Shown here: positions 2,439 through 11,469 of the stretch, in pieces | How positions within the stretch are numbered: position 1 is the stretch's first letter | How the letters are laid out: the number at the start of each line of letters is the position of its first letter | Origin: Treponemataceae bacterium | Lineage (GTDB): Bacteria > Spirochaetota > Spirochaetia > Treponematales > Rectinemataceae | Assembly (NCBI GenBank): GCA_963667725.2 | Contig: CAXXHO010000003.1 | Span: forward strand, 1,664,001-1,728,000 | Reading direction: 5' to 3' | DNA: 64,000 nt | Program-made: the position numbers and the translations under genes | The notes under the pieces: generated by a model | Databases searched by the model: none | Told to the model about the DNA's origin: nothing | The model's input: only the letters and a program-made list of their open reading frames with translations

Positions 2439-3740
2439 TCAACGCTCGCGAAGGATGAGGTCCTCGTATGTTTCGCGACGCACCGAAAGGCGATGTGAAC
2501 CATCCTTGGTCATGACGACGGCGGGACGGGGAATGCGATTATAGTTCGAGGCCATGGAGTGGTTGTAGGCTCCCGTGGAGAAAACGGCGAGGATGTCGCC
2601 CGGTTCTGGATCGGGCAGGTCGAGGTCGCGTATGAGGATATCCCCCGTTTCGCAGCACTTGCCCACTACCGTCACCGTGGTTCCGCTCGCCCGATCCGCC
2701 TTATTGGCGCAGAGGGCGTGGTATTTCGCCTCGTAGAGAGCCGGGCGGATGTTGTCGGCCATGCCCCCGTCGACGCCGACGTAGGTGCGAATGTCGGGTA
2801 TCGTCTTGACTGAACGGAGAGTATAAAGGGTGATGCCCGCTTCGCCGATGATCCAGCGGCCCGGTTCGATCGTCACTCTGGGCACGGGGATTCCCGCTTC
2901 TTCGGCGGAGGCGCGGACCAGCTCCATCATGGGATCGATGAAGTAGCCGAGGCTCAGCTCGGGATCGCCGGGGAGATAGCGGATGCCGAAGCCTCCGCCG
3001 AGGTTGAGCTCTGAAGTCGCATAACCATAGCCGTTCTTTACGTCGGCCATGAGTTTCAGCGCTATCCGCAGGGCCGCGAGATGAGAAAAGTTGTCGTGGA
3101 GCTGGGATCCTATATGGAAATGAAAACCCCTGAAGTCTATATGCGGCGCGTCCAGCACGGCGCGCATATAGAGGTCGCGCAACGATGGGTCGAGGGGAAT
3201 CCCGAACTTGGAATCCAGGCTTCCGGTGGAAATGAAGCGATGCGTATGGCTGTCGACGCCCGGCGTGATCCTGTAGAGAACCTTAACCTTTTTGCCGTAG
3301 AGCGCCCCCAGCCTTTCGATTTCCTGGATTTCGAAGAGGTTGTCTGATACTATGCGCCCGACATTGGAGCGTATGGCATAATCGAGTTCGTCGGCCGCCT
3401 TGGCGTTGCCGTGGAAAAAGATGGTTTCCGGGTCCACGCCTGCCTTGAGCGCCGCGTAGAGCTCGCCGCCTGAGACGACGTCCAGCCCCAAGCCTTCATC
3501 GGCGACGATTCTGCACATGTCGAGAGTCTGGAAGGCCTTGCTCGCGTAGACCGCCGAAGTATTGGGATACTTTTCCAGAAACGCCGATCTGATGAGGCCG
3601 CAGCGTTCCCTCACCATGGATTCGGAAACCACGTAGAGGGGAGTACCGTAATGAGCGGCCAGTTCCGTGGCGTCGACGCCATCGAAATAAAGCTTGCTTC
3701 CGCAGATTTCCGCGCGGGAATTGAATCCTGATATGCTCAT
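2439..3740 (-). CDS. lysA: Diaminopimelate decarboxylase
   Basis: YGTPLYV, YASKAF (PLP Lys), DVVSGGEL, SKFG, HFHIGSQ, LGGG, EPGR, CETGD, GAY..SMASNYN motifs; ATG at 3740 lies 6 nt after a -10 box. Confidence 0.95.
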   Translation of the reverse strand: MSISGFNSRAEICGSKLYFDGVDATELAAHYGTPLYVVSESMVRERCGLIRSAFLEKYPNTSAVYASKAFQTLDMCRIVADEGLGLDVVSGGELYAALKAGVDPETIFFHGNAKAADELDYAIRSNVGRIVSDNLFEIQEIERLGALYGKKVKVLYRITPGVDSHTHRFISTGSLDSKFGIPLDPSLRDLYMRAVLDAPHIDFRGFHFHIGSQLHDNFSHLAALRIALKLMADVKNGYGYATSELNLGGGFGIRYLPGDPELSLGYFIDPMMELVRASAEEAGIPVPRVTIEPGRWIIGEAGITLYTLRSVKTIPDIRTYVGVDGGMADNIRPALYEAKYHALCANKADRASGTTVTVVGKCCETGDILIRDLDLPDPEPGDILAVFSTGAYNHSMASNYNRIPRPAVVMTKDGSHRLSVRRETYEDLILRER

Positions 3741-3746
3741 GGACGC

Positions 3747-3775
3747 ATTGTACACGATCCCCGGGCGAAGATTAA
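3747..3775 (-). promoter_or_regulatory. sigma70-type promoter of lysA (leaderless)
   Basis: TTAATC-N17-TACAAT-N6-ATG; no SD sequence. Confidence 0.55.
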
Positions 3776-3897
3776 GTACGGAATCCTCCCGCGAGGATTA
3801 TGTTCGCCGAAATATTTTCAATATGGAAAATCCGGCGGCGAGCGGGTATACTTCGCCCAACATCGCCGACGGCGACGCTTTTATCCGGGGGATGACC

Positions 3898-4614
3898 ATG
3901 AAACCACGCATCGGACTCACCACCTTCATCGATCCGCAGGCGCGGGCGAATTACGTATCGCTCAGAGAACACTATACCCGTTCGGTCAGGGACTCGGGCG
4001 GCATCCCCTTTCCCATTCCTCTCGTCGAGGACGCGGGGATGGCCGAGGATTATGTCTCGAACATCGATGGCCTCCTCCTGACGGGAGGCAAGGATATCGA
4101 TCCCGCGTATTATGGCCAGGAGCCCCTTGTCGGGATCGGCCCCTTCGGCGCGGGACGCGACGCATGGGAGTTGGCGCTGTTCGCCGCGGCGGCCAGGAAA
4201 GCCTTGCCTATCTTCGGGATCTGCAGAGGATGTCAGCTCATCAACGTGGCGATGGGAGGAACGCTTTTTCAGGATCTGAAAACGCAGCGGCCGGGCACGA
4301 ACGCACACAGTCCTGAGGATTTCCCCGTGGACAGGCTCTACCATTCCGTCGAACTCAAGGAAGGATCGACGCTGTATCGCGCCTTCGGAAAAAATTCCCT
4401 GCGGGTGAACAGCTTTCATCATCAGGCCGTCAGGGATCTGGCCCCGGGACTGAAGGCCTCTGCTTTTGCCGCCGACGGCGTCCTGGAAGGTTTCGAGGCG
4501 ACGGACGCTTCGCGCTTTCTCGTCGCCGTGCAGTTCCATCCGGAAAGCCTCACGCTGAGATTTCCGGAATTTCTCGCGATTTTCAGGACGTTTGTGGAGG
4601 CTTGCGGAGGATGA
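3898..4614 (+). CDS. Peptidase C26 / gamma-glutamyl-gamma-aminobutyrate hydrolase (PuuD-like) class I glutamine amidotransferase-fold protein
   Basis: KPRIG, LLLTGGKDIDP, PIFGICRGCQ (Cys), VNSFHHQA, VQFHPE (His-Glu). Confidence 0.9.
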   Translation: MKPRIGLTTFIDPQARANYVSLREHYTRSVRDSGGIPFPIPLVEDAGMAEDYVSNIDGLLLTGGKDIDPAYYGQEPLVGIGPFGAGRDAWELALFAAAARKALPIFGICRGCQLINVAMGGTLFQDLKTQRPGTNAHSPEDFPVDRLYHSVELKEGSTLYRAFGKNSLRVNSFHHQAVRDLAPGLKASAFAADGVLEGFEATDASRFLVAVQFHPESLTLRFPEFLAIFRTFVEACGG

Positions 4615-4671
4615 AGAGTATGATCCGGCTCTGGAAGCCTCCATCTAGACCGTATTCCATCTAGACAATTT

Positions 4672-5778
4672 TCAATCGGCGAAGGGCGACTCCAGCAGTT
4701 CAAGGCTGGGGGCTTCGGCGTTCATCCTGTAGCTGAGGCCGAGCGGCAGAGTCAGCGTCGGGGCGCAGTGCCCCGCCTCGATGCCAGCGAGAACGGGTTT
4801 TCCGCAAGGCAGGATAAGGTCGCGAAGGATTTCCTCGATCGTCAGCGAGCGTTTGCCCGCGGCTGGGGCGCAGCGGGTCCAGGCGCCGATAGCGACGCCA
4901 GCGCAGTCTTCGAATTTTCCAGCCAGGCGCAGCTGGTTCAGCATCCTGTCGATGCGGTAGGGTGCCTCGTCTATATCCTCGATGAAAATGATTTTTCCCC
5001 GCGCGTCGAGCTCCCAGGGCGTGCCGATGGTGGCCGCGATGAGGGAAAGATTGCCTCCCGTGAGTTCTCCCTCGGCGATTCCGCCCGAAAGGGCATGGAA
5101 GGGACGGCCCGAGGGATTCTCGAGGCGGAGGATTGGGGCCGCGGCGGCTTTGGAGGCCGTGTCGGAGGTGGCGGCTATGGAGGCCGGGCTGGGGGTGGCG
5201 GCGCTGGAGGCCGGGTCAGGGGTGACGGCGTTGGAGGCCGGGTCAGGGGGGTCTGGAAGCCCGAAAAGCGCGGTTTCTAAGGAAGCCCTCGAAGCCGGAT
5301 CGAACTCGGGCACCATGTCGGAGGAAGGCATGGGGCCATGGAAGGTGACAAGTCCGACCGATTGGCGAAACGCGATATGGAGGGCGGTTATGTCGCTGTA
5401 GCCCAGGAAAACCTTGGGATGGGCGGCGATAATCGAGTAGTCGATGAGATCGAGGATGCGCGGCGTTCCGTAGCCGCCTTTGAGGCAGATCACGGCGCTG
5501 GTATCCGGATCGAGAAAGGCGAGTTCCAGCTCACGGGCCCGGGTCGCGTCTACTCCGGCGAGGTAGCCGTAGGCGTCGGCGCAATGGGGCGAAGCCTTCA
5601 CGCGGAAGCCGAGGTCAGTAAGGGCGCGTATGGAGGCTTCGACCCGGTCGGGGCCGCTGGCGGCGCCCGAGGGGGCTACGAGGGAGACTGCGTCACCTCG
5701 GAGCAGCCGGCGCGGCTTGAGGCGCCGCGGGGCGGGCGGGGGCCGGAAGGAAGCCGCGCCGGCGGCAACGGCCTTCAC
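4672..5778 (-). CDS. ldcA: LD-carboxypeptidase (peptidase S66)
   Basis: VAPS, GGYG, GYSDIT (Ser), GGNLS, IEDIDE (Glu), AGH (His); contains a repeat insertion; GTGA overlap with the upstream gene. Confidence 0.9.
   Translation of the reverse strand: MKAVAAGAASFRPPPAPRRLKPRRLLRGDAVSLVAPSGAASGPDRVEASIRALTDLGFRVKASPHCADAYGYLAGVDATRARELELAFLDPDTSAVICLKGGYGTPRILDLIDYSIIAAHPKVFLGYSDITALHIAFRQSVGLVTFHGPMPSSDMVPEFDPASRASLETALFGLPDPPDPASNAVTPDPASSAATPSPASIAATSDTASKAAAAPILRLENPSGRPFHALSGGIAEGELTGGNLSLIAATIGTPWELDARGKIIFIEDIDEAPYRIDRMLNQLRLAGKFEDCAGVAIGAWTRCAPAAGKRSLTIEEILRDLILPCGKPVLAGIEAGHCAPTLTLPLGLSYRMNAEAPSLELLESPFAD
5141..5251. repeat. In-frame 27-bp tandem repeat (about 4 degenerate copies) inside ldcA
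   Basis: TGGAGGCC cores at 5151, 5178, 5205 and 5232 (period 27); encodes PDPASxAAT-like 9-mers. Confidence 0.85.
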
Positions 5779-6962
5779 GAACGCTTACCCAGCAGCCTGG
5801 CGACCAGGCCCGCCTGCATGGCGACGCCGATGGGCAGACAGCCTTCGTCAATATCGAAGGCATTGGAGTGCAGCGCCGCCGTAATCCCCTTCCGGGGATT
5901 GCCGCAGCCTAGATGGTAGAAAGAGCCGGGCCTTTCCTGGACGAAGAAGGAAAAATCCTCGACGCCCATGCTCGCCTTATCCCGCCAGATTATGGAATCA
6001 GAGCCCAGCAGGTCCTTCGCCTCCTCGGCGATGAGATCCACCACCCAATCGTGGTTGATGAGCGCCGCGTAACCCGCGACGATTTCGACTTCCCCTGATC
6101 CTCCGAAGGCGACGGGCAGGTTGGCGACGATGGCCCTCACCCTCTCCGCGATTTCGGCCCTTACCTGAGGATTCGTCGTCCTGATGGTGCCTGTCATCCT
6201 CACCTCATCGGCGATGATATTGTTGCGGGTGCCTCCCTGGATGGTTCCAAGCGTCAGCACGGCTTCCTGGAGGGGAGAAACGTAGCGGGAAACCACCGAA
6301 TGGAGCGCGTCCACGACCTTGGCCGCTATCATGATGGCGTCGATGCCCGTGCTGGGATAGGCGGCATGAGCTCCCTTGCCCCGTATGGTGACGCCGAGAA
6401 AATCGGAGGAGCCGTTGAGGGCTCCATGCTTCAGCTCGACCTTTCCCACCGGCACATCCGGCATGACATGGAGCCCTATGACGACATCGACGTGGGGATT
6501 CTCGAGACAGCCGTCGGCGATCATCTTCGCCGCCCCGCCCGTCGTCTCTTCGGCGGGCTGGAAAAGAAATTTGACCGATCCAGCCAGCTCGTTTTTATGC
6601 TCCATCCAGTATTTCGCCGTGCCCAAAGCGATCGTCATATGAGCGTCGTGGCCGCAGGCGTGCATGTAACCCTTGTGGCGGGACGCATAAGCGCGATCGG
6701 CGGGTTCATTCACCGGCAAGGCATCCATGTCCGCCCTCAGGCCGATCACTTTGCCGGATTTTTTGCCCTCGACGAGGGCCACGACGGAGGTCCGTCTTTT
6801 TTCATAGGGGATGCCAAGCTCTTCCAGAATGCCGCAGACCGCTCCCTGCGTCTCGAACTCGGCGTCGCCGGCTTCCGGTATCCGGTGGAGCGCTCTGCGC
6901 GTCTGAACGAGCCAGTCCTTCATCGTTTTCGTCGCTTCCAGCAATTCCTTATCTGTCGACAT
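5775..6962 (-). CDS. M20D amidohydrolase (hippuricase / N-acetyl-DAP deacetylase-like)
   Basis: RRALHRIPE, LRADMDALP, MHACGHDAH, FQPAEE, GVEDFS, LHS motifs; AAGGAG RBS before the ATG at 6962. Confidence 0.9.
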   Translation of the reverse strand: MSTDKELLEATKTMKDWLVQTRRALHRIPEAGDAEFETQGAVCGILEELGIPYEKRRTSVVALVEGKKSGKVIGLRADMDALPVNEPADRAYASRHKGYMHACGHDAHMTIALGTAKYWMEHKNELAGSVKFLFQPAEETTGGAAKMIADGCLENPHVDVVIGLHVMPDVPVGKVELKHGALNGSSDFLGVTIRGKGAHAAYPSTGIDAIMIAAKVVDALHSVVSRYVSPLQEAVLTLGTIQGGTRNNIIADEVRMTGTIRTTNPQVRAEIAERVRAIVANLPVAFGGSGEVEIVAGYAALINHDWVVDLIAEEAKDLLGSDSIIWRDKASMGVEDFSFFVQERPGSFYHLGCGNPRKGITAALHSNAFDIDEGCLPIGVAMQAGLVARLLGKRS

Positions 6963-7002
6963 TCCTGACTCCTTGATTTTTACGGTCGCGCGGATCGGCG
7001 GA

Positions 7003-8199
7003 CTAGAGCCGCCGCAGCGTCGATCCCGAGAGACGATTATCCAGAGCGACAACCTTCCCTCTTCGCGTATATAAGCGAGGGACCCTTCTTCCGATGCCGC
7101 ACAGCAGTTCGTTCCTGTTGGTGGATCCCCAGTCGGAAGCTTCATTTAGGCTAATGGCGCCGCCGCCCAGAAGGATCACTTCGTCGCCTTCGGCAACGCC
7201 ATCGATGGCTCCCACGTCCACCATGGTCTGATCCATGCAGACGAGGCCAACTACTGTCGCTCTCTTCCCCCTGATGAAGACCTGAGCCTTGTTGCCGAAG
7301 CGCCGGGGATAGCCGTCGGCGTACCCGACGGGAAGCGTGGCCACGAGGGTGCCTCCCTTCGGAGCCTGCCATGAATCGTCGTAGGAAACCATTTCGCCCT
7401 CATCCAACCGCCTGATTCTCGCGATCCGCGTGATAAAAGTTCCCGCCGGGGGAAATGGGTACGCATTGTATTCAGGCCCCATTCTCGAAGGCCTGACGCC
7501 AAAGAACGCCGCCCCTACCCTGACCATGTCGAGCCTGAATTCGGGGTATCGGACGGCGCCTATGCTGTCGCAGACATGGCGCAGCCCGGTCGGAATGCCC
7601 TTCGCGGCACAGCCGTCAAGTATTTTATTATAGGCCGCGAACTGCGCCACGTCCGATTCACGATCGCGAAGCGCGAGATGGGTGAAGGTTCCCCGCAGTT
7701 CCAGTCCCGGCATTTCCGCGATAGCCCCGATTATGCCGACGGTATCCTCGTAAGGCTTCATGCCAAGCCGGTTCATCCCGGTATCCAGCTTGATATGGAC
7801 GGGAAGAACCGCGCCTGCCATGACCGCCGCGTCGGAAAAAGCCTGGGCGTTCTTCGCGTCGAACAAGGTGGGCATTACGCGATGCTCGACGGCAAGGCCG
7901 GCGAATTCCTCGGGGGTATGCCCCATGACAAGGAGTTCGGCATCGGGGAAGGCTCTCCGCAGCTCAAGAGCTTCGGAAATCGTGGCGACGGCGAGCAGGT
8001 CGGCCCCGGCCGCCAGCAGCGTCCCGCCAATCATCACGGCGCCGTGCCCGTAGGCGTCGGCCTTGATGACGGCGGCGATCTTTACCATATCCCCCACGAT
8101 AGTCTTCATGTCCCGGAAATTGGATTCCACGACATCGAGATCGATGGAATAATAGGTCTGTCGGCCCAGACTTCTCAGGATATCGCCGCCGGGCTTCAT
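7003..8199 (-). CDS. alr: Alanine racemase family protein (second paralog)
   Basis: AVIKADAYGHG, HIKLDTGMNRLG, VSY, GYADG, VCMDQ. Confidence 0.88.
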   Translation of the reverse strand: MKPGGDILRSLGRQTYYSIDLDVVESNFRDMKTIVGDMVKIAAVIKADAYGHGAVMIGGTLLAAGADLLAVATISEALELRRAFPDAELLVMGHTPEEFAGLAVEHRVMPTLFDAKNAQAFSDAAVMAGAVLPVHIKLDTGMNRLGMKPYEDTVGIIGAIAEMPGLELRGTFTHLALRDRESDVAQFAAYNKILDGCAAKGIPTGLRHVCDSIGAVRYPEFRLDMVRVGAAFFGVRPSRMGPEYNAYPFPPAGTFITRIARIRRLDEGEMVSYDDSWQAPKGGTLVATLPVGYADGYPRRFGNKAQVFIRGKRATVVGLVCMDQTMVDVGAIDGVAEGDEVILLGGGAISLNEASDWGSTNRNELLCGIGRRVPRLYTRRGKVVALDNRLSGSTLRRL

Positions 8200-9137
8200 T
8201 ATTTCTCGCCCGCCAGACGGGGATTCCCGGCCCCTAAGGCGCCAGAATTCTTCAGGCTCAGTATCATCGCCTCAGAGAACCGCCCTTCGTATATGCCGAG
8301 CGCGGGACCCGTCATCAGCACCGATGGGCGGGAAAGATCAAGGGAAAGAATCCCTCCGGGCATATGGACCTGGACAAGCCCCTCGACCAATCCCAGCTTT
8401 TTGGCGACGCTCGCCGCGGCGCAGGAGGAAGAGCCGCTCGCCAGCGTGTAGCCCGCCCCCCTCTCCCATATTTCTATCCGCAGGTTGTGCCTGTCCAGCA
8501 CCGTGGCGAACTGCACATTGGTCCGCTCGGGAAAGAGCCGATGATGCTCGACAAGGGGACCCAGGCGTTTCGCCAGCCCAGGCGTCGGATCGTCGACAAA
8601 GACGACACAGTGGGGATTGCCCATGGAGACGAAGGTCGCCGAAACGCTTTCGGTTCCCAGTTCCAGCTTCCCTCGGACGAATTCCGGAAGATCGGTCGCG
8701 AGTCCGGCGGCGAAAGCCGAAAAAGAGGGCTCGCCCATATCCACCTTTATACGGGGCGGGTCGAGGCATTCGACCTTCGCCCGGACCCTGCCGCCTTTTG
8801 TGTCCACGGGGAATTCCTCCCCGTTCACGTAGCCTTGTTCCGCGAGAAAAAGGCAGAAAATCCTCAGCCCATTGCCGCTCTTTTCGGCTTCGGAACCATC
8901 CGGATTGAAAATCCTGACCCATGGCGTCGAGGCGCGGCCGAGAAGGCCGGCGGGCATACCCGCAAGATCTTTTTCGGAGGCGAGAGGTCCCAGCAGGATG
9001 CCATCGGAACCGGCGCCCATGTTCCTGTCGCAGATCGCCCGCACTGCGTCGGCAGCGGGCACGAAGGGGAATTCCCTTGGGTCGATGACGATATAATCGT
9101 TGCCCAAGGCATGGTATTTCCTGAACTCAGCCGGCAT
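8199..9137 (-). CDS. dapF: Diaminopimelate epimerase family protein with Ser/Ser active site
   Basis: KYHALGNDY, CDRNMGAGSDG, FNPDGSEAEKSGNG, SMGNPHCV, FPERTNVQF, WERGAGYTLASGSS, MTGPA. Confidence 0.88.
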   Translation of the reverse strand: MPAEFRKYHALGNDYIVIDPREFPFVPAADAVRAICDRNMGAGSDGILLGPLASEKDLAGMPAGLLGRASTPWVRIFNPDGSEAEKSGNGLRIFCLFLAEQGYVNGEEFPVDTKGGRVRAKVECLDPPRIKVDMGEPSFSAFAAGLATDLPEFVRGKLELGTESVSATFVSMGNPHCVVFVDDPTPGLAKRLGPLVEHHRLFPERTNVQFATVLDRHNLRIEIWERGAGYTLASGSSSCAAASVAKKLGLVEGLVQVHMPGGILSLDLSRPSVLMTGPALGIYEGRFSEAMILSLKNSGALGAGNPRLAGEK

Positions 9138-10248
9138 CGGCTCCTCCCTTCGCGATCCTGGGCACGCGCTTCGAGATGCCGCAGGTCACTTCATAATCGA
9201 TGGTGCCCATGAGGCCGGCCAGTTCGCCCGCGGGCAATTCGGGAAGACCGAAAAGAGTAACCTCATCGTCAAGCATGGCTTCGGGGATATCGGTTATGTC
9301 TATCATCACCTGATCCATGCAGATTCGCCCCGCAATGGGCGCCTTCCTCCCCCTTACGATCACGCTGCCTTTATTCGAGAGAAGACGGGAATAGCCGTCG
9401 GCGTAACCGATCTGCAGAAGGGCGATGCGCGAATCCCTCTGCGCGGTGAACAGCCGGCCGTAGCTGACGCTTTCTCCCTTTTTCAGCAGGCGGATATTGG
9501 CTATGGACGCGCAGAGCTGCATGACGGGAAGGAATCCTTCGGGCGGATTCGGATTCGCGTCGGGGGAAAGGCCGTAGAAGAGTATGCCGGGACGGACCAT
9601 GTCGAATCGGGCTTCGGGGATATGGAGAAGGGCGGCGCTGTTGGATATATGACGTATTGGGGGGCAGACACCGGCCGTCTTCATGCCTTTGAGGGCACGC
9701 CGGAATTCCGCGATCTGGCGGTAGGTGAAGGAAGTGTCGGGATTGTCGGCATCAGCGAAATGTGAATAGACACCTTCGATATATAGTCCTTCCATGGACG
9801 CGAGCGAACGGGAAAAGGATTCCGCCTCATCCGGGGAGATGCCTTGGCGATGCATGCCCGTATCGATCTTGAAGTGGATCTTGGCCGGATGATCTCGGCG
9901 GCGAGCGGACTTGGCGAGGGCAAGCGCCAGTTCCAAGGTATAAACGGTCTGGGTGATGTTCTGCGATACGATGATATCGGCGTTCGAGGGATCGGTGGTG
10001 CCGAGAACGAGGAGGGGCGTGGCGATGCCGGCCGAGCGAAGCTCCAGGGCTTCTTCCAGAAGGGCTACCGCGAGGTAGTCTATTCCCGCGCGGTCGAGGG
10101 CGCGCGATACGGCGATGGCGTCATGGCCGTAAGCGTCGGCCTTGACGACGGCGCAGACTTTTGCCTGACCGGCAAGGCTTCGGATTTTACGCAGGTTGTT
10201 GACGAGATTGTCGGTGTGAATATAGGCGGCGGCTTTTCTGTTCATCAT
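9127..10248 (-). CDS. alr: Alanine racemase
   Basis: AVVKADAYGH, KIDTGMHRQG, SHFADAD, SNSAA, VRPG, VSYG, GYADG, GRICMDQ, GTIDYE. Confidence 0.93.
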   Translation of the reverse strand: MMNRKAAAYIHTDNLVNNLRKIRSLAGQAKVCAVVKADAYGHDAIAVSRALDRAGIDYLAVALLEEALELRSAGIATPLLVLGTTDPSNADIIVSQNITQTVYTLELALALAKSARRRDHPAKIHFKIDTGMHRQGISPDEAESFSRSLASMEGLYIEGVYSHFADADNPDTSFTYRQIAEFRRALKGMKTAGVCPPIRHISNSAALLHIPEARFDMVRPGILFYGLSPDANPNPPEGFLPVMQLCASIANIRLLKKGESVSYGRLFTAQRDSRIALLQIGYADGYSRLLSNKGSVIVRGRKAPIAGRICMDQVMIDITDIPEAMLDDEVTLFGLPELPAGELAGLMGTIDYEVTCGISKRVPRIAKGGADAG

Positions 10249-10254
10249 ATGGTA

Positions 10255-11469
10255 TCAGCCCTTCTCCTGAACTTGGGATTTCGGTTGCGTTATTGGATTT
10301 GATCGGCTCGATGAGCTCGGTCTGCGGCAGGCGGTCAGCGTCTTGTCCCATATGAACAGATCGGCTTTCGCTCCCAGCTCTATGCTTCCCCCCTGCCCGC
10401 GGGCCGTGAAGCCGAGGGCGGCGCCGGGCACGAGGCTCATGGAGGCAAGCGCAGGGGCGAGAGAAAGGCCGGTAGCCGTCATATAGGATTGGACGATCTG
10501 CATGCCTAGTTTATTGGATCCGATAAGCGTGCCCGTTTCGCTGTAGCGCACGCCGTTCATGCTGGAGACTATGGACTTTCCGAAATAGCGGTAGTCGCCG
10601 TATTCCAGGCCTGCGGAAACCACGGCGTCGCTCGTGAGGATGAGGCGTTCAGAGGGGATACAGCGCGAAGCGGCTATCATGCTGCTGCCGTTCACATGGA
10701 TACCGTCGGCGTTGAGCTCGGTCCACGCGGGGATGCCCGCGAGGGCTACGTTGACGAGGCCGCCGCCGCCGCTGCGGTGGTCCAACCCGCTCATCGCGTT
10801 GAAGAGGTGGGTCACGGAAAAGGGCGGCGGCGGCAAGGCGACCCCGGCGCTCGCGCCCGAGTGCCCCAGCGAAACGAGGACGCCGTTCTCCCTCAGTATC
10901 GGATAGAGCGCCTCGGCGCCCGGCAGTTCAGGCGCGAGCGCCATTATCCTGAGCCTGCCCCTGGCCGTCTCGATTATTTTTCGGCACAAGTCCGTGTTCG
11001 GAGCCTCTATCTGCGGCAGGTTTATCCCTCCGCGATGCTTCGGGTCGATGAAAGGACCTTCGATATAAATTCCTGGAATAGTCTCCATGGGCAACCTCGA
11101 AGCCTCGATGGCATCCACAAGCCTTCCCACGGCCCCCTCGTCCCAGAGAATGGTGGGGACAAAACACCCCACTCCCCTCTTTTCCAGCTTCCCCGCGACT
11201 TCGAGGATATCCTCGGCGCCACGGACGCTTTCAAAACCAATGCCGAAGGCCCCATGGATATGCATTTCCACGAGCCGCGGCGCTATATAAGAACCGCCGC
11301 AATCGACAACGGCCAGATCGCGGTCTCCGGGATTGGATGCCAGGTATTCTTCAAGAGTTTCGCCGCCGATATGACGGATACTCCCCTCCTTGACGACGAG
11401 GATTCCCCCTTCGAGAAGCCTGTCGGGCAGGACGAATGTGCCTCCGGAGAGGATTTGAATGTCAGCCAT
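10255..11469 (-). CDS. nagA: N-acetylglucosamine-6-phosphate deacetylase
   Basis: HIHGAFG, EGPFI, APE, SLGHS, THLFNAM, ADGIHV, LTSDA, LIGS motifs. Confidence 0.85.
   Translation of the reverse strand: MADIQILSGGTFVLPDRLLEGGILVVKEGSIRHIGGETLEEYLASNPGDRDLAVVDCGGSYIAPRLVEMHIHGAFGIGFESVRGAEDILEVAGKLEKRGVGCFVPTILWDEGAVGRLVDAIEASRLPMETIPGIYIEGPFIDPKHRGGINLPQIEAPNTDLCRKIIETARGRLRIMALAPELPGAEALYPILRENGVLVSLGHSGASAGVALPPPPFSVTHLFNAMSGLDHRSGGGGLVNVALAGIPAWTELNADGIHVNGSSMIAASRCIPSERLILTSDAVVSAGLEYGDYRYFGKSIVSSMNGVRYSETGTLIGSNKLGMQIVQSYMTATGLSLAPALASMSLVPGAALGFTARGQGGSIELGAKADLFIWDKTLTACRRPSSSSRSNPITQPKSQVQEKG

Follow-up and report, generated by a model that had tools for sequence, protein, structure and literature searches.

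We characterized a cluster of eight genes in a 64,000-nucleotide stretch of DNA (the window) from the genome assembly of an anaerobic spirochaete of the Rectinemataceae (G000; 97% complete, 6.3% contaminated). The cluster likely serves the catabolism of murein stem peptides containing diaminopimelate (DAP). In profile scans of the open reading frames (ORFs) of the window all eight genes were found to be real and intact at the following positions:

2439..3755, minus strand: lysA, meso-DAP decarboxylase (TIGR01048, 433.6 versus a cut-off of 297.9; alternative ATG start at 3740)
3898..4614, plus strand: C26 peptidase, a PuuD/SpuA-like gamma-glutamyl hydrolase (PF07722, 218 bits)
4672..5778, minus strand: ldcA, S66 LD-carboxypeptidase, LdcA/YkfA-like (PF02016 and PF17676; below the cut-off for E. 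coli-type LdcA)
5775..6962, minus strand: M20 amidohydrolase (TIGR01891)
7003..8199, minus strand: alr2, member of a pyridoxal phosphate (PLP) racemase subfamily (HLAL, CDSIG, TNRNE; K46 and Y273 kept)
8199..9137, minus strand: dapF of the Ser/Ser type (S87, S234; TIGR00652, 217 versus a cut-off of 114.65)
9127..10248, minus strand: alr1, ordinary alanine racemase (Tyr354-type, GTIDYE; TIGR00492, 379.9)
10255..11469, minus strand: nagA-like deacetylase, a divergent second copy and accessory (TIGR00221, 150, below the cut-off of 225.65)

Going from nagA over alr1, dapF, alr2 and M20 to ldcA, successive genes are separated by a gap of 6 bases, overlaps of 11 and 1 bases, a gap of 40 bases and an overlap of 4 bases. 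Because the genes overlap or lie at most 40 bases apart, they likely form one operon. The C26 gene is convergent with ldcA (57 bases between them), while lysA is transcribed away from C26 at a distance of 142 bases and, being divergent, constitutes a separate transcription unit. An earlier annotation made from the letters alone (the sequence-only reading) had described both the packed operon and the converging C26 gene with lysA adjoining, and the coordinates bear it out. A promoter scan of the locus gave consensus matches only. The G+C content of the eight genes (0.59-0.67, compared to 0.56 for the contig) is not taken as a sign of transfer, and the named close homologues belong to Rectinemataceae or Spirochaetales.

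The catalytic motifs are intact in LdcA (GYSD, EDIDE, GH), C26 (GICRG, FHPE) and LysA (YASKA, CETGD), and the M20 residues are kept as well. Two features had escaped the sequence-only reading: the two catalytic Cys of DapF are both replaced by Ser, and the active-site signature of Alr2 is divergent. According to tblastn searches, dapF, alr1, alr2, ldcA and C26 of the window are the sole copies in G000. The window lysA is also the only one in this genome above the TIGR01048 cut-off.

The linkage of C26, LdcA, LysA and DapF, for which a synteny survey had been suggested, turned out to be conserved. The same core (alr2-M20-ldcA, lysA, C26 and often dapF) occurs in two spirochaete families, where it is joined by an Opp transporter, the D-aminopeptidase DppA and an M19 dipeptidase. 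We followed its distribution in a panel of 41 genomes and, separately, in 401 genomes of the order that were searched with an Alr2 profile. Within the panel, C26 matches were found in 19 genomes and LdcA in 15, and an Alr2 bearing the signature occurred in the same 15 genomes; one further second alr was read as ordinary and one match below the cut-off, in G029, was left unread. An alr match as such was present in 41/41. Across the order the Alr2 profile matched 36/401 genomes, with 19/53 in family f1, 16/35 in f6, 0/222 in f3, 0/88 in f4 and 0/2 in f5. In a panel of the phylum the only Alr2 carrier among 251 genomes was G000. A metagenome search returned the signature in 4 of 80 loci, all four with M20-ldcA downstream, the other 76 being ordinary Alr.

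In total 34 Alr2 loci were read, comprising 33 of the 35 matches outside G000 plus G017. As many of these loci reach contig ends, the following counts are lower bounds: at least 31 loci hold M20 near Alr2, 25 lysA, 25 ldcA, 23 C26, 23 dppA, 20 oppA, 18 M19, 17 alr1, 17 dapF and 4 nagA. The usual order is opp-C26 / (alr1)(dapF)-alr2-M20-dppA-ldcA-lysA-M19. The inclusion of nagA and alr1 as pathway members in the sequence-only reading is thus not upheld: neither belongs to the core, and a canonical nagA lies elsewhere in G000 (contig C5, ~295.6-296.6 kb; score 378 against the TIGR00221 cut-off of 225.65). The genome also holds murQ and anmK above cut-off elsewhere, plus a nagZ-like gene. A beta-lactamase-fold serine hydrolase recurs beside the cluster-type Opp operon (L151:13982-15469; also L305, L308 and L318) and may be a DD-peptidase partner.

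Information about the origin of the DAP comes from carriers in which dapB was not found. Of the 35 genomes of family f6, 17 gave a dapB match. Half of the 16 Alr2 carriers of this family have no dapB match (G037, G320, G314, G296, G328 and G309, 95-99% complete; G359 and G349, 87-88% complete), and the cluster of each of the eight retains lysA, with one copy truncated at a contig end. When G359 and G349 were set aside, dapA gave no match in five of the remaining six and only matches below the cut-off in G314. The ddh test covered G037 only among the eight. As a control, eight genomes of the 41-genome panel have no dapB, and among these only G037, which has the cluster, holds a lysA above cut-off. 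In these carriers lysA persists without a dapB found, and it lies beside murein peptidases and a peptide importer; imported DAP is the best explanation for a LysA that lacks upstream synthesis. DapF is present in G003 and G314, both without a dapB found, which fits the use of LL-DAP walls.

The specificity of MurE had been named in the sequence-only reading as a check. Its motif reads DEDPR, not DNPR, in 33/33 loci (30/30 plus 3/3), so that the DAP handled by the cluster is probably foreign. Presumably, DEDPR denotes an ornithine-adding MurE. The motif DNPR is the mark of a DAP-adding MurE (PMC3829189, PMC3681970; these and the other papers cited here are drawn on in excerpt), and the wall of Borrelia is of the ornithine type (PMC8092773). 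Rectinema cohabitans uses dead biomass, and its expressed genes include peptide transporters (PMC6052044). As a side observation, murE, ddl and an ornithine aminotransferase gene (rocD) follow one another on the same strand of G000 (contig C3, ~889.4-893.6 kb; L011:3413-7573), a possible link to the supply of an ornithine wall.

The sequence-only reading had seen no dapA, dapB, asd or lysC in the window, its premise being that a complete de novo DAP route might be missing. None of these genes is indeed among the window ORFs scanned, but asd-lysC-dapB-dapA-dapD lie in a row elsewhere in G000 (C3:132-137 kb). This rules out the absence of a de novo DAP route here, and the premise fails. The dapB of this set scores 120.7 against a cut-off of 122 in one model and passes both Pfam cut-offs. 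No lysA follows dapD in the set, no dapL was found above cut-off in G000, and ddh occurs in 1/41 panel genomes, not in G000. DapF and LysA are needed for de novo lysine because they are the only copies found while the upper pathway is present. Their proposed role as salvage steps stands with regard to the conserved linkage to peptidases, but in this genome they also serve biosynthesis. Likewise, the broader claim of a disassembly line for foreign murein is upheld by the linkage, by the lysA of the dapB-less carriers and by a MurE without DNPR, and is weakened by the de novo pathway.

Additional genes of DAP metabolism were noted. An ArgE/DapE-family gene above cut-off lies at C3:82 kb of G000, whereas among the matches listed for 16 other M20 genes of this genome there was no dapE equivalog above cut-off. 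A second set of dapA-like, asd and aspartokinase genes (C3, 1476-1486 kb; L019:6424-16215) is accompanied by a TRAP transporter, a racemase-family gene and oxidoreductases and is possibly catabolic. G006 and G014 hold a second LysA-like gene, below cut-off, after dapD besides the cluster lysA. At loci L171 and L173-L177 of relatives, dapD or its aminotransferase is directly followed by a divergent decarboxylase, which in five of these loci is closer to TIGR03099; in several of the genomes concerned no dapF scores above cut-off.

The window DapF lacks the two catalytic cysteines of canonical Cys/Cys DapF, both being replaced by Ser (S87, S234). All cluster DapF copies that were read are Ser/Ser, as are 117 of the 120 top homologues of the window protein, the other 3 being partly unreadable; the DAP-binding motifs are kept. 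In a quick tree the cluster DapFs fall into one clade with a support of 99 (45 Ser/Ser and 2 Cys/Ser rows among 100), and the Ser/Ser clade spans many phyla. A dead or new enzyme is ruled out as an interpretation, since Ser/Ser DapFs have been reported to be catalytic (Lamer et al. 2025, J Mol Biol 437:169375, as cited in PMC13728532). With this published type the window protein, known by sequence alone, shares Ser at both positions and the DAP-binding motifs; it differs in sitting in a peptide-catabolism cluster. Of 115 ORFs picked around Ser/Ser DapFs outside spirochaetes, 83 were scanned together with four added ones, and most of these neighbours were unrelated. Within the cluster DapF is optional, as expected if free meso-DAP passes straight to LysA. 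In three f6 genomes the M19 end of the cluster borders directly on a divergent DapF-fold gene of the Cys/Cys type (26-30% identity; L313:2133-2978, L317:2158-2808, L306:16106-16933).

LdcA of the window is 28% identical to E. coli LdcA and keeps the motifs of the Ser-Glu-His triad. GYSD was found in 34/34 readable rows, and ED..E and GH are kept, too. Between the two domains it carries a low-complexity Pro/Ala/Ser insert of ~40 residues (window 5140-5260) that is apparently variable among relatives. For C26 the closest solved structures are Lin1909, a Pseudomonas-type glutamine amidotransferase entry and PuuD, and the Cys/His/Glu motifs are kept in the cluster orthologues; we propose it as a putative gamma-D-Glu-DAP hydrolase. 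The LysA motif CE[ST]GD occurs in 39/41 rows, two being unreadable. The M20 protein matches TIGR01891 only, with DapE models far below cut-off, and cluster M20s stand apart from four G000 paralogues (quick tree, no printed support). In relatives without ldcA and alr2 the M20 gene stays between dapF and lysA. It is thus a candidate acyl-DAP deacylase or peptide hydrolase, and its position is suggestive of the deacylase.

Neither MpaA (M14) nor YkfC (NlpC/P60) is among the cluster ORFs scanned, and tblastn with the E. coli proteins gave no match for MpaA or YcjG in G000. As for an L-Ala-D/L-Glu epimerase, this genome holds an unlinked enolase-family gene at C3:1760.8 kb, scoring 149 against a cut-off of 500. 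The only mpl match is 26% with a MurC-like N-terminus, and a PepD-type gene lies elsewhere in the genome.

Alr2 is 36% identical to Alr1. Its model (pLDDT 94.5) has the Alr fold, and both catalytic residues, K46 and Y273, are retained. The signature consists of HLAL, CDSIG, an Asp after the catalytic Tyr, a Leu replacing a conserved Arg, and TNRNE. Among the homologues R362 is found in 120/120 and N363 in 119/120. N363 occupies the Tyr354 position, at which Alr1 keeps the Tyr of strict alanine racemases. The best 150 representatives at 50% identity carry RN at R362-N363 in 21 cases and KN in 11. Alr2 appears to represent a racemase subfamily that is now annotated simply as alanine racemase; an atlas search returned alanine racemase clusters only. 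Asn or a smaller residue at Tyr354 widens the specificity in VanT and lysine racemases (PMC4542195), and the conserved basic residue before the Asn suggests a substrate with a second carboxylate. Alr2 shares with VanT and Alr Y354N the Asn at this position, but has Arg/Lys rather than Thr before it, keeps Pro at the presumed VanT Ser567, has no membrane domain and carries the CDSIG and HLAL signatures. An assignment as VanT was rejected, as only the Asn of the Tyr-Ser-Thr-Asn set is shared and vanT models remain below cut-off.

Three substrates come into question for Alr2. D-Glu, favoured by the tie to C26, has close to an even chance of being the substrate. D-Ala or a broad range, favoured by a fusion of LdcA with a KN-type Alr2 (P0260), is a less probable choice, and a DAP isomer, favoured by a DapF-Alr2 fusion (P0242), is rather improbable. 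Both fusions are known from one predicted protein each and may be artefacts. A role as sole source of D-Glu was rejected, MurI being present in 5/5 genomes tested.

Gene identities, intact active sites, conserved linkage and distribution are the observations from which we propose the following process. The Opp transporter, whose orthologue is unlinked in G000, would import stem peptides. LdcA would remove residue 4 (D-Ala), and DppA would split D-Ala-D-Ala and D-Ala-DAP remnants. M19 and/or M20 would cut L-Ala-D-Glu or acyl-DAP bonds, while C26, in place of MpaA/YkfC, would cut gamma-D-Glu-DAP. Ser/Ser DapF would then turn LL-DAP into meso-DAP from which LysA would yield L-Lys, and Alr2 would racemise a released D-amino acid. 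In G000, DapF, LysA and perhaps M20 would also complete the asd-lysC-dapB-dapA-dapD route. We consider it likely that the cluster catabolizes stem peptides derived at least partly from foreign DAP-type walls and doubles here as the end of lysine synthesis. The LdcA-Alr2 fusion, a Holophaga locus in which alr2 lies with DppA and C26, and the murQ, anmK, nagA and nagZ-like genes of G000 also speak for this. A bolder version is tentative: a third murein-peptide route directed at foreign walls, with C26, an enzyme of the class-I glutamine-amidotransferase fold, acting on gamma-D-Glu-DAP, Alr2 being a PLP-dependent D-glutamate racemase that has an Arg/Lys-Asn pocket on an alanine-racemase fold, and LysA feeding DAP-free, DAP-auxotrophic spirochaetes from necromass.

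Several points weigh against stem-peptide catabolism fed by foreign walls. In G000 the upper part of de novo DAP synthesis is present, and dapF and lysA are required in any case. Its dppA, opp and M19 genes are not linked to the cluster (oppA, 67%, at C3:255.8 kb; dppA, 62-65%, on C5 and C7; M19, 42%, at C3:1226.6 kb). The MurE motif DEDPR does not prove an ornithine wall. The solved relatives of C26 include gamma-glutamyl hydrolases of polyamine pathways, and two unlinked NlpC/P60 genes or a weak M14 match of G000 could take over the C26 step; NlpC/P60 is present in 38/41 genomes irrespective of the cluster. Reduced nagA-alr1-dapF-M20-lysA clusters without ldcA or alr2 exist in L021, L022, G021 and G015. 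G012 has a reduced cluster without dapF and a Cys/Cys dapF elsewhere, and G018 keeps C26 while ldcA and alr2 are absent. Finally, the genomes are mostly incomplete assemblies, G000 is contaminated to the extent given above, and kin are not independent. Separately, the two dppA copies of G000 on C5 and C7 (L152:6480-8070 and L153:5705-7417) each lie beside a similar methyltransferase, which may reflect duplication or contamination.

The reduced clusters, the sole copies of dapF and lysA and an upper pathway that ends without lysA, with neither dapL nor ddh nor a listed dapE equivalog, are what a purely biosynthetic supercluster would leave, in which an M20 deacylase, DapF and LysA finish lysine, the racemases supply D-Ala, and LdcA and C26 are bystanders. 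Yet lysA and M20 are kept in the eight carriers without a dapB found, Opp, DppA and M19 are conserved partners, and the ArgE/DapE-family gene at C3:82 kb could be a rival to the cluster M20 as acyl-DAP deacylase. Moreover, five of six reduced-cluster M20s fall among the full-cluster M20s (quick tree, no printed support), such that the reduced clusters fit a loss of peptidases from the full cluster. We infer that the end of a salvage cluster was recruited to biosynthesis, and regard the biosynthetic explanation as improbable. Recycling of the own, probably ornithine-type, wall by Opp, LdcA, DppA, M19, C26 and Alr2, in which case lysA and dapF would have joined the cluster for some other reason, is similarly doubtful. 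All peptidase steps would work on L-Ala-gamma-D-Glu-Orn-D-Ala, and alr2 does occur away from lysA: the G003 cluster has no adjacent lysA, and a Holophaga genome has an Alr2-like gene after DmpA, DppA, isoaspartyl peptidase and C26, with no lysA in the 18 kb read. However, LysA in carriers without dapA and dapB would then have no known DAP source unless DAP is imported, and the cluster is absent from most walled relatives, as the Alr2 counts in f3 and f4 illustrate.

The Holophaga locus, the PuuD relatives of C26 and the similar scores of the S66 protein versus LdcA and MccF-like structures could also suggest a general scavenging of D-amino acids and isopeptides (gamma-glutamyl amines, D-peptides, poly-gamma-glutamate fragments) that is not specific for murein. 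This is very unlikely, since LdcA, DppA, LysA and DapF together point to the stem peptide, and the LdcA-Alr2 fusion argues in the same direction. A Holophaga sp. assembly additionally holds a second locus resembling a murein-peptide cluster, opp-alr-YkuD-lysA-like-VanX-enolase-family epimerase-Ser/Ser dapF (L025:1195-9743).

We found no description of this gene combination in the open-access literature searched, and the excerpts of PMC7511781 contain no spirochaete link. Judged from its genes, the locus is a conserved candidate murein-peptide catabolism cluster with substituted enzymes, and as a combination it is new within that literature. It looks like a salvage module of which biosynthesis has taken over the last part. 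A large part of the dead biomass found in anoxic sediments and digesters consists of bacterial walls, whose peptide part anaerobes process with poorly mapped enzymes. The cluster supplies candidate enzymes in a group for which a life on necromass is documented (PMC6052044). If the proposal is true, the C26 family gains a cell-wall substrate, a racemase subfamily is defined among annotated alanine racemases, and the retention of lysA in genomes without dapA and dapB is explained.

Known systems resemble the cluster in parts. In gene content alone, M20, a second Alr and LysA occur together at the tail of the dap operon of Staphylococcus aureus (amidohydrolase-alr2-lysA), which is biosynthetic and has no murein peptidases. 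In Bacillus subtilis dppA belongs to the dpp operon. As in ykf/mpa-type catabolism, the spirochaete cluster holds an S66 carboxypeptidase with its triad and, in 20/34 loci, a linked oligopeptide ABC transporter (oppA); MpaA/YkfC and an L-Ala-D/L-Glu epimerase are missing from it. With dppB-E/ykfABCD of B. subtilis (PMC2954226) it has in common the clustered peptide ABC transporter, the S66 LD-carboxypeptidase and the M55 peptidase DppA. In place of YkfC and YkfB it contains C26, M20, M19 and Alr2, it adds LysA and DapF, and the wall of its owner is probably of a non-DAP type. The MppA-MpaA-YcjG-PepD route of E. coli (PMC2954226, PMC6403190) differs by the MpaA and YcjG that are unmatched in G000, where the mpl match is MurC-like; common to both are the conversion of murein tripeptide to amino acids, in our case a predicted one, an LdcA acting upstream and a PepD-type gene.

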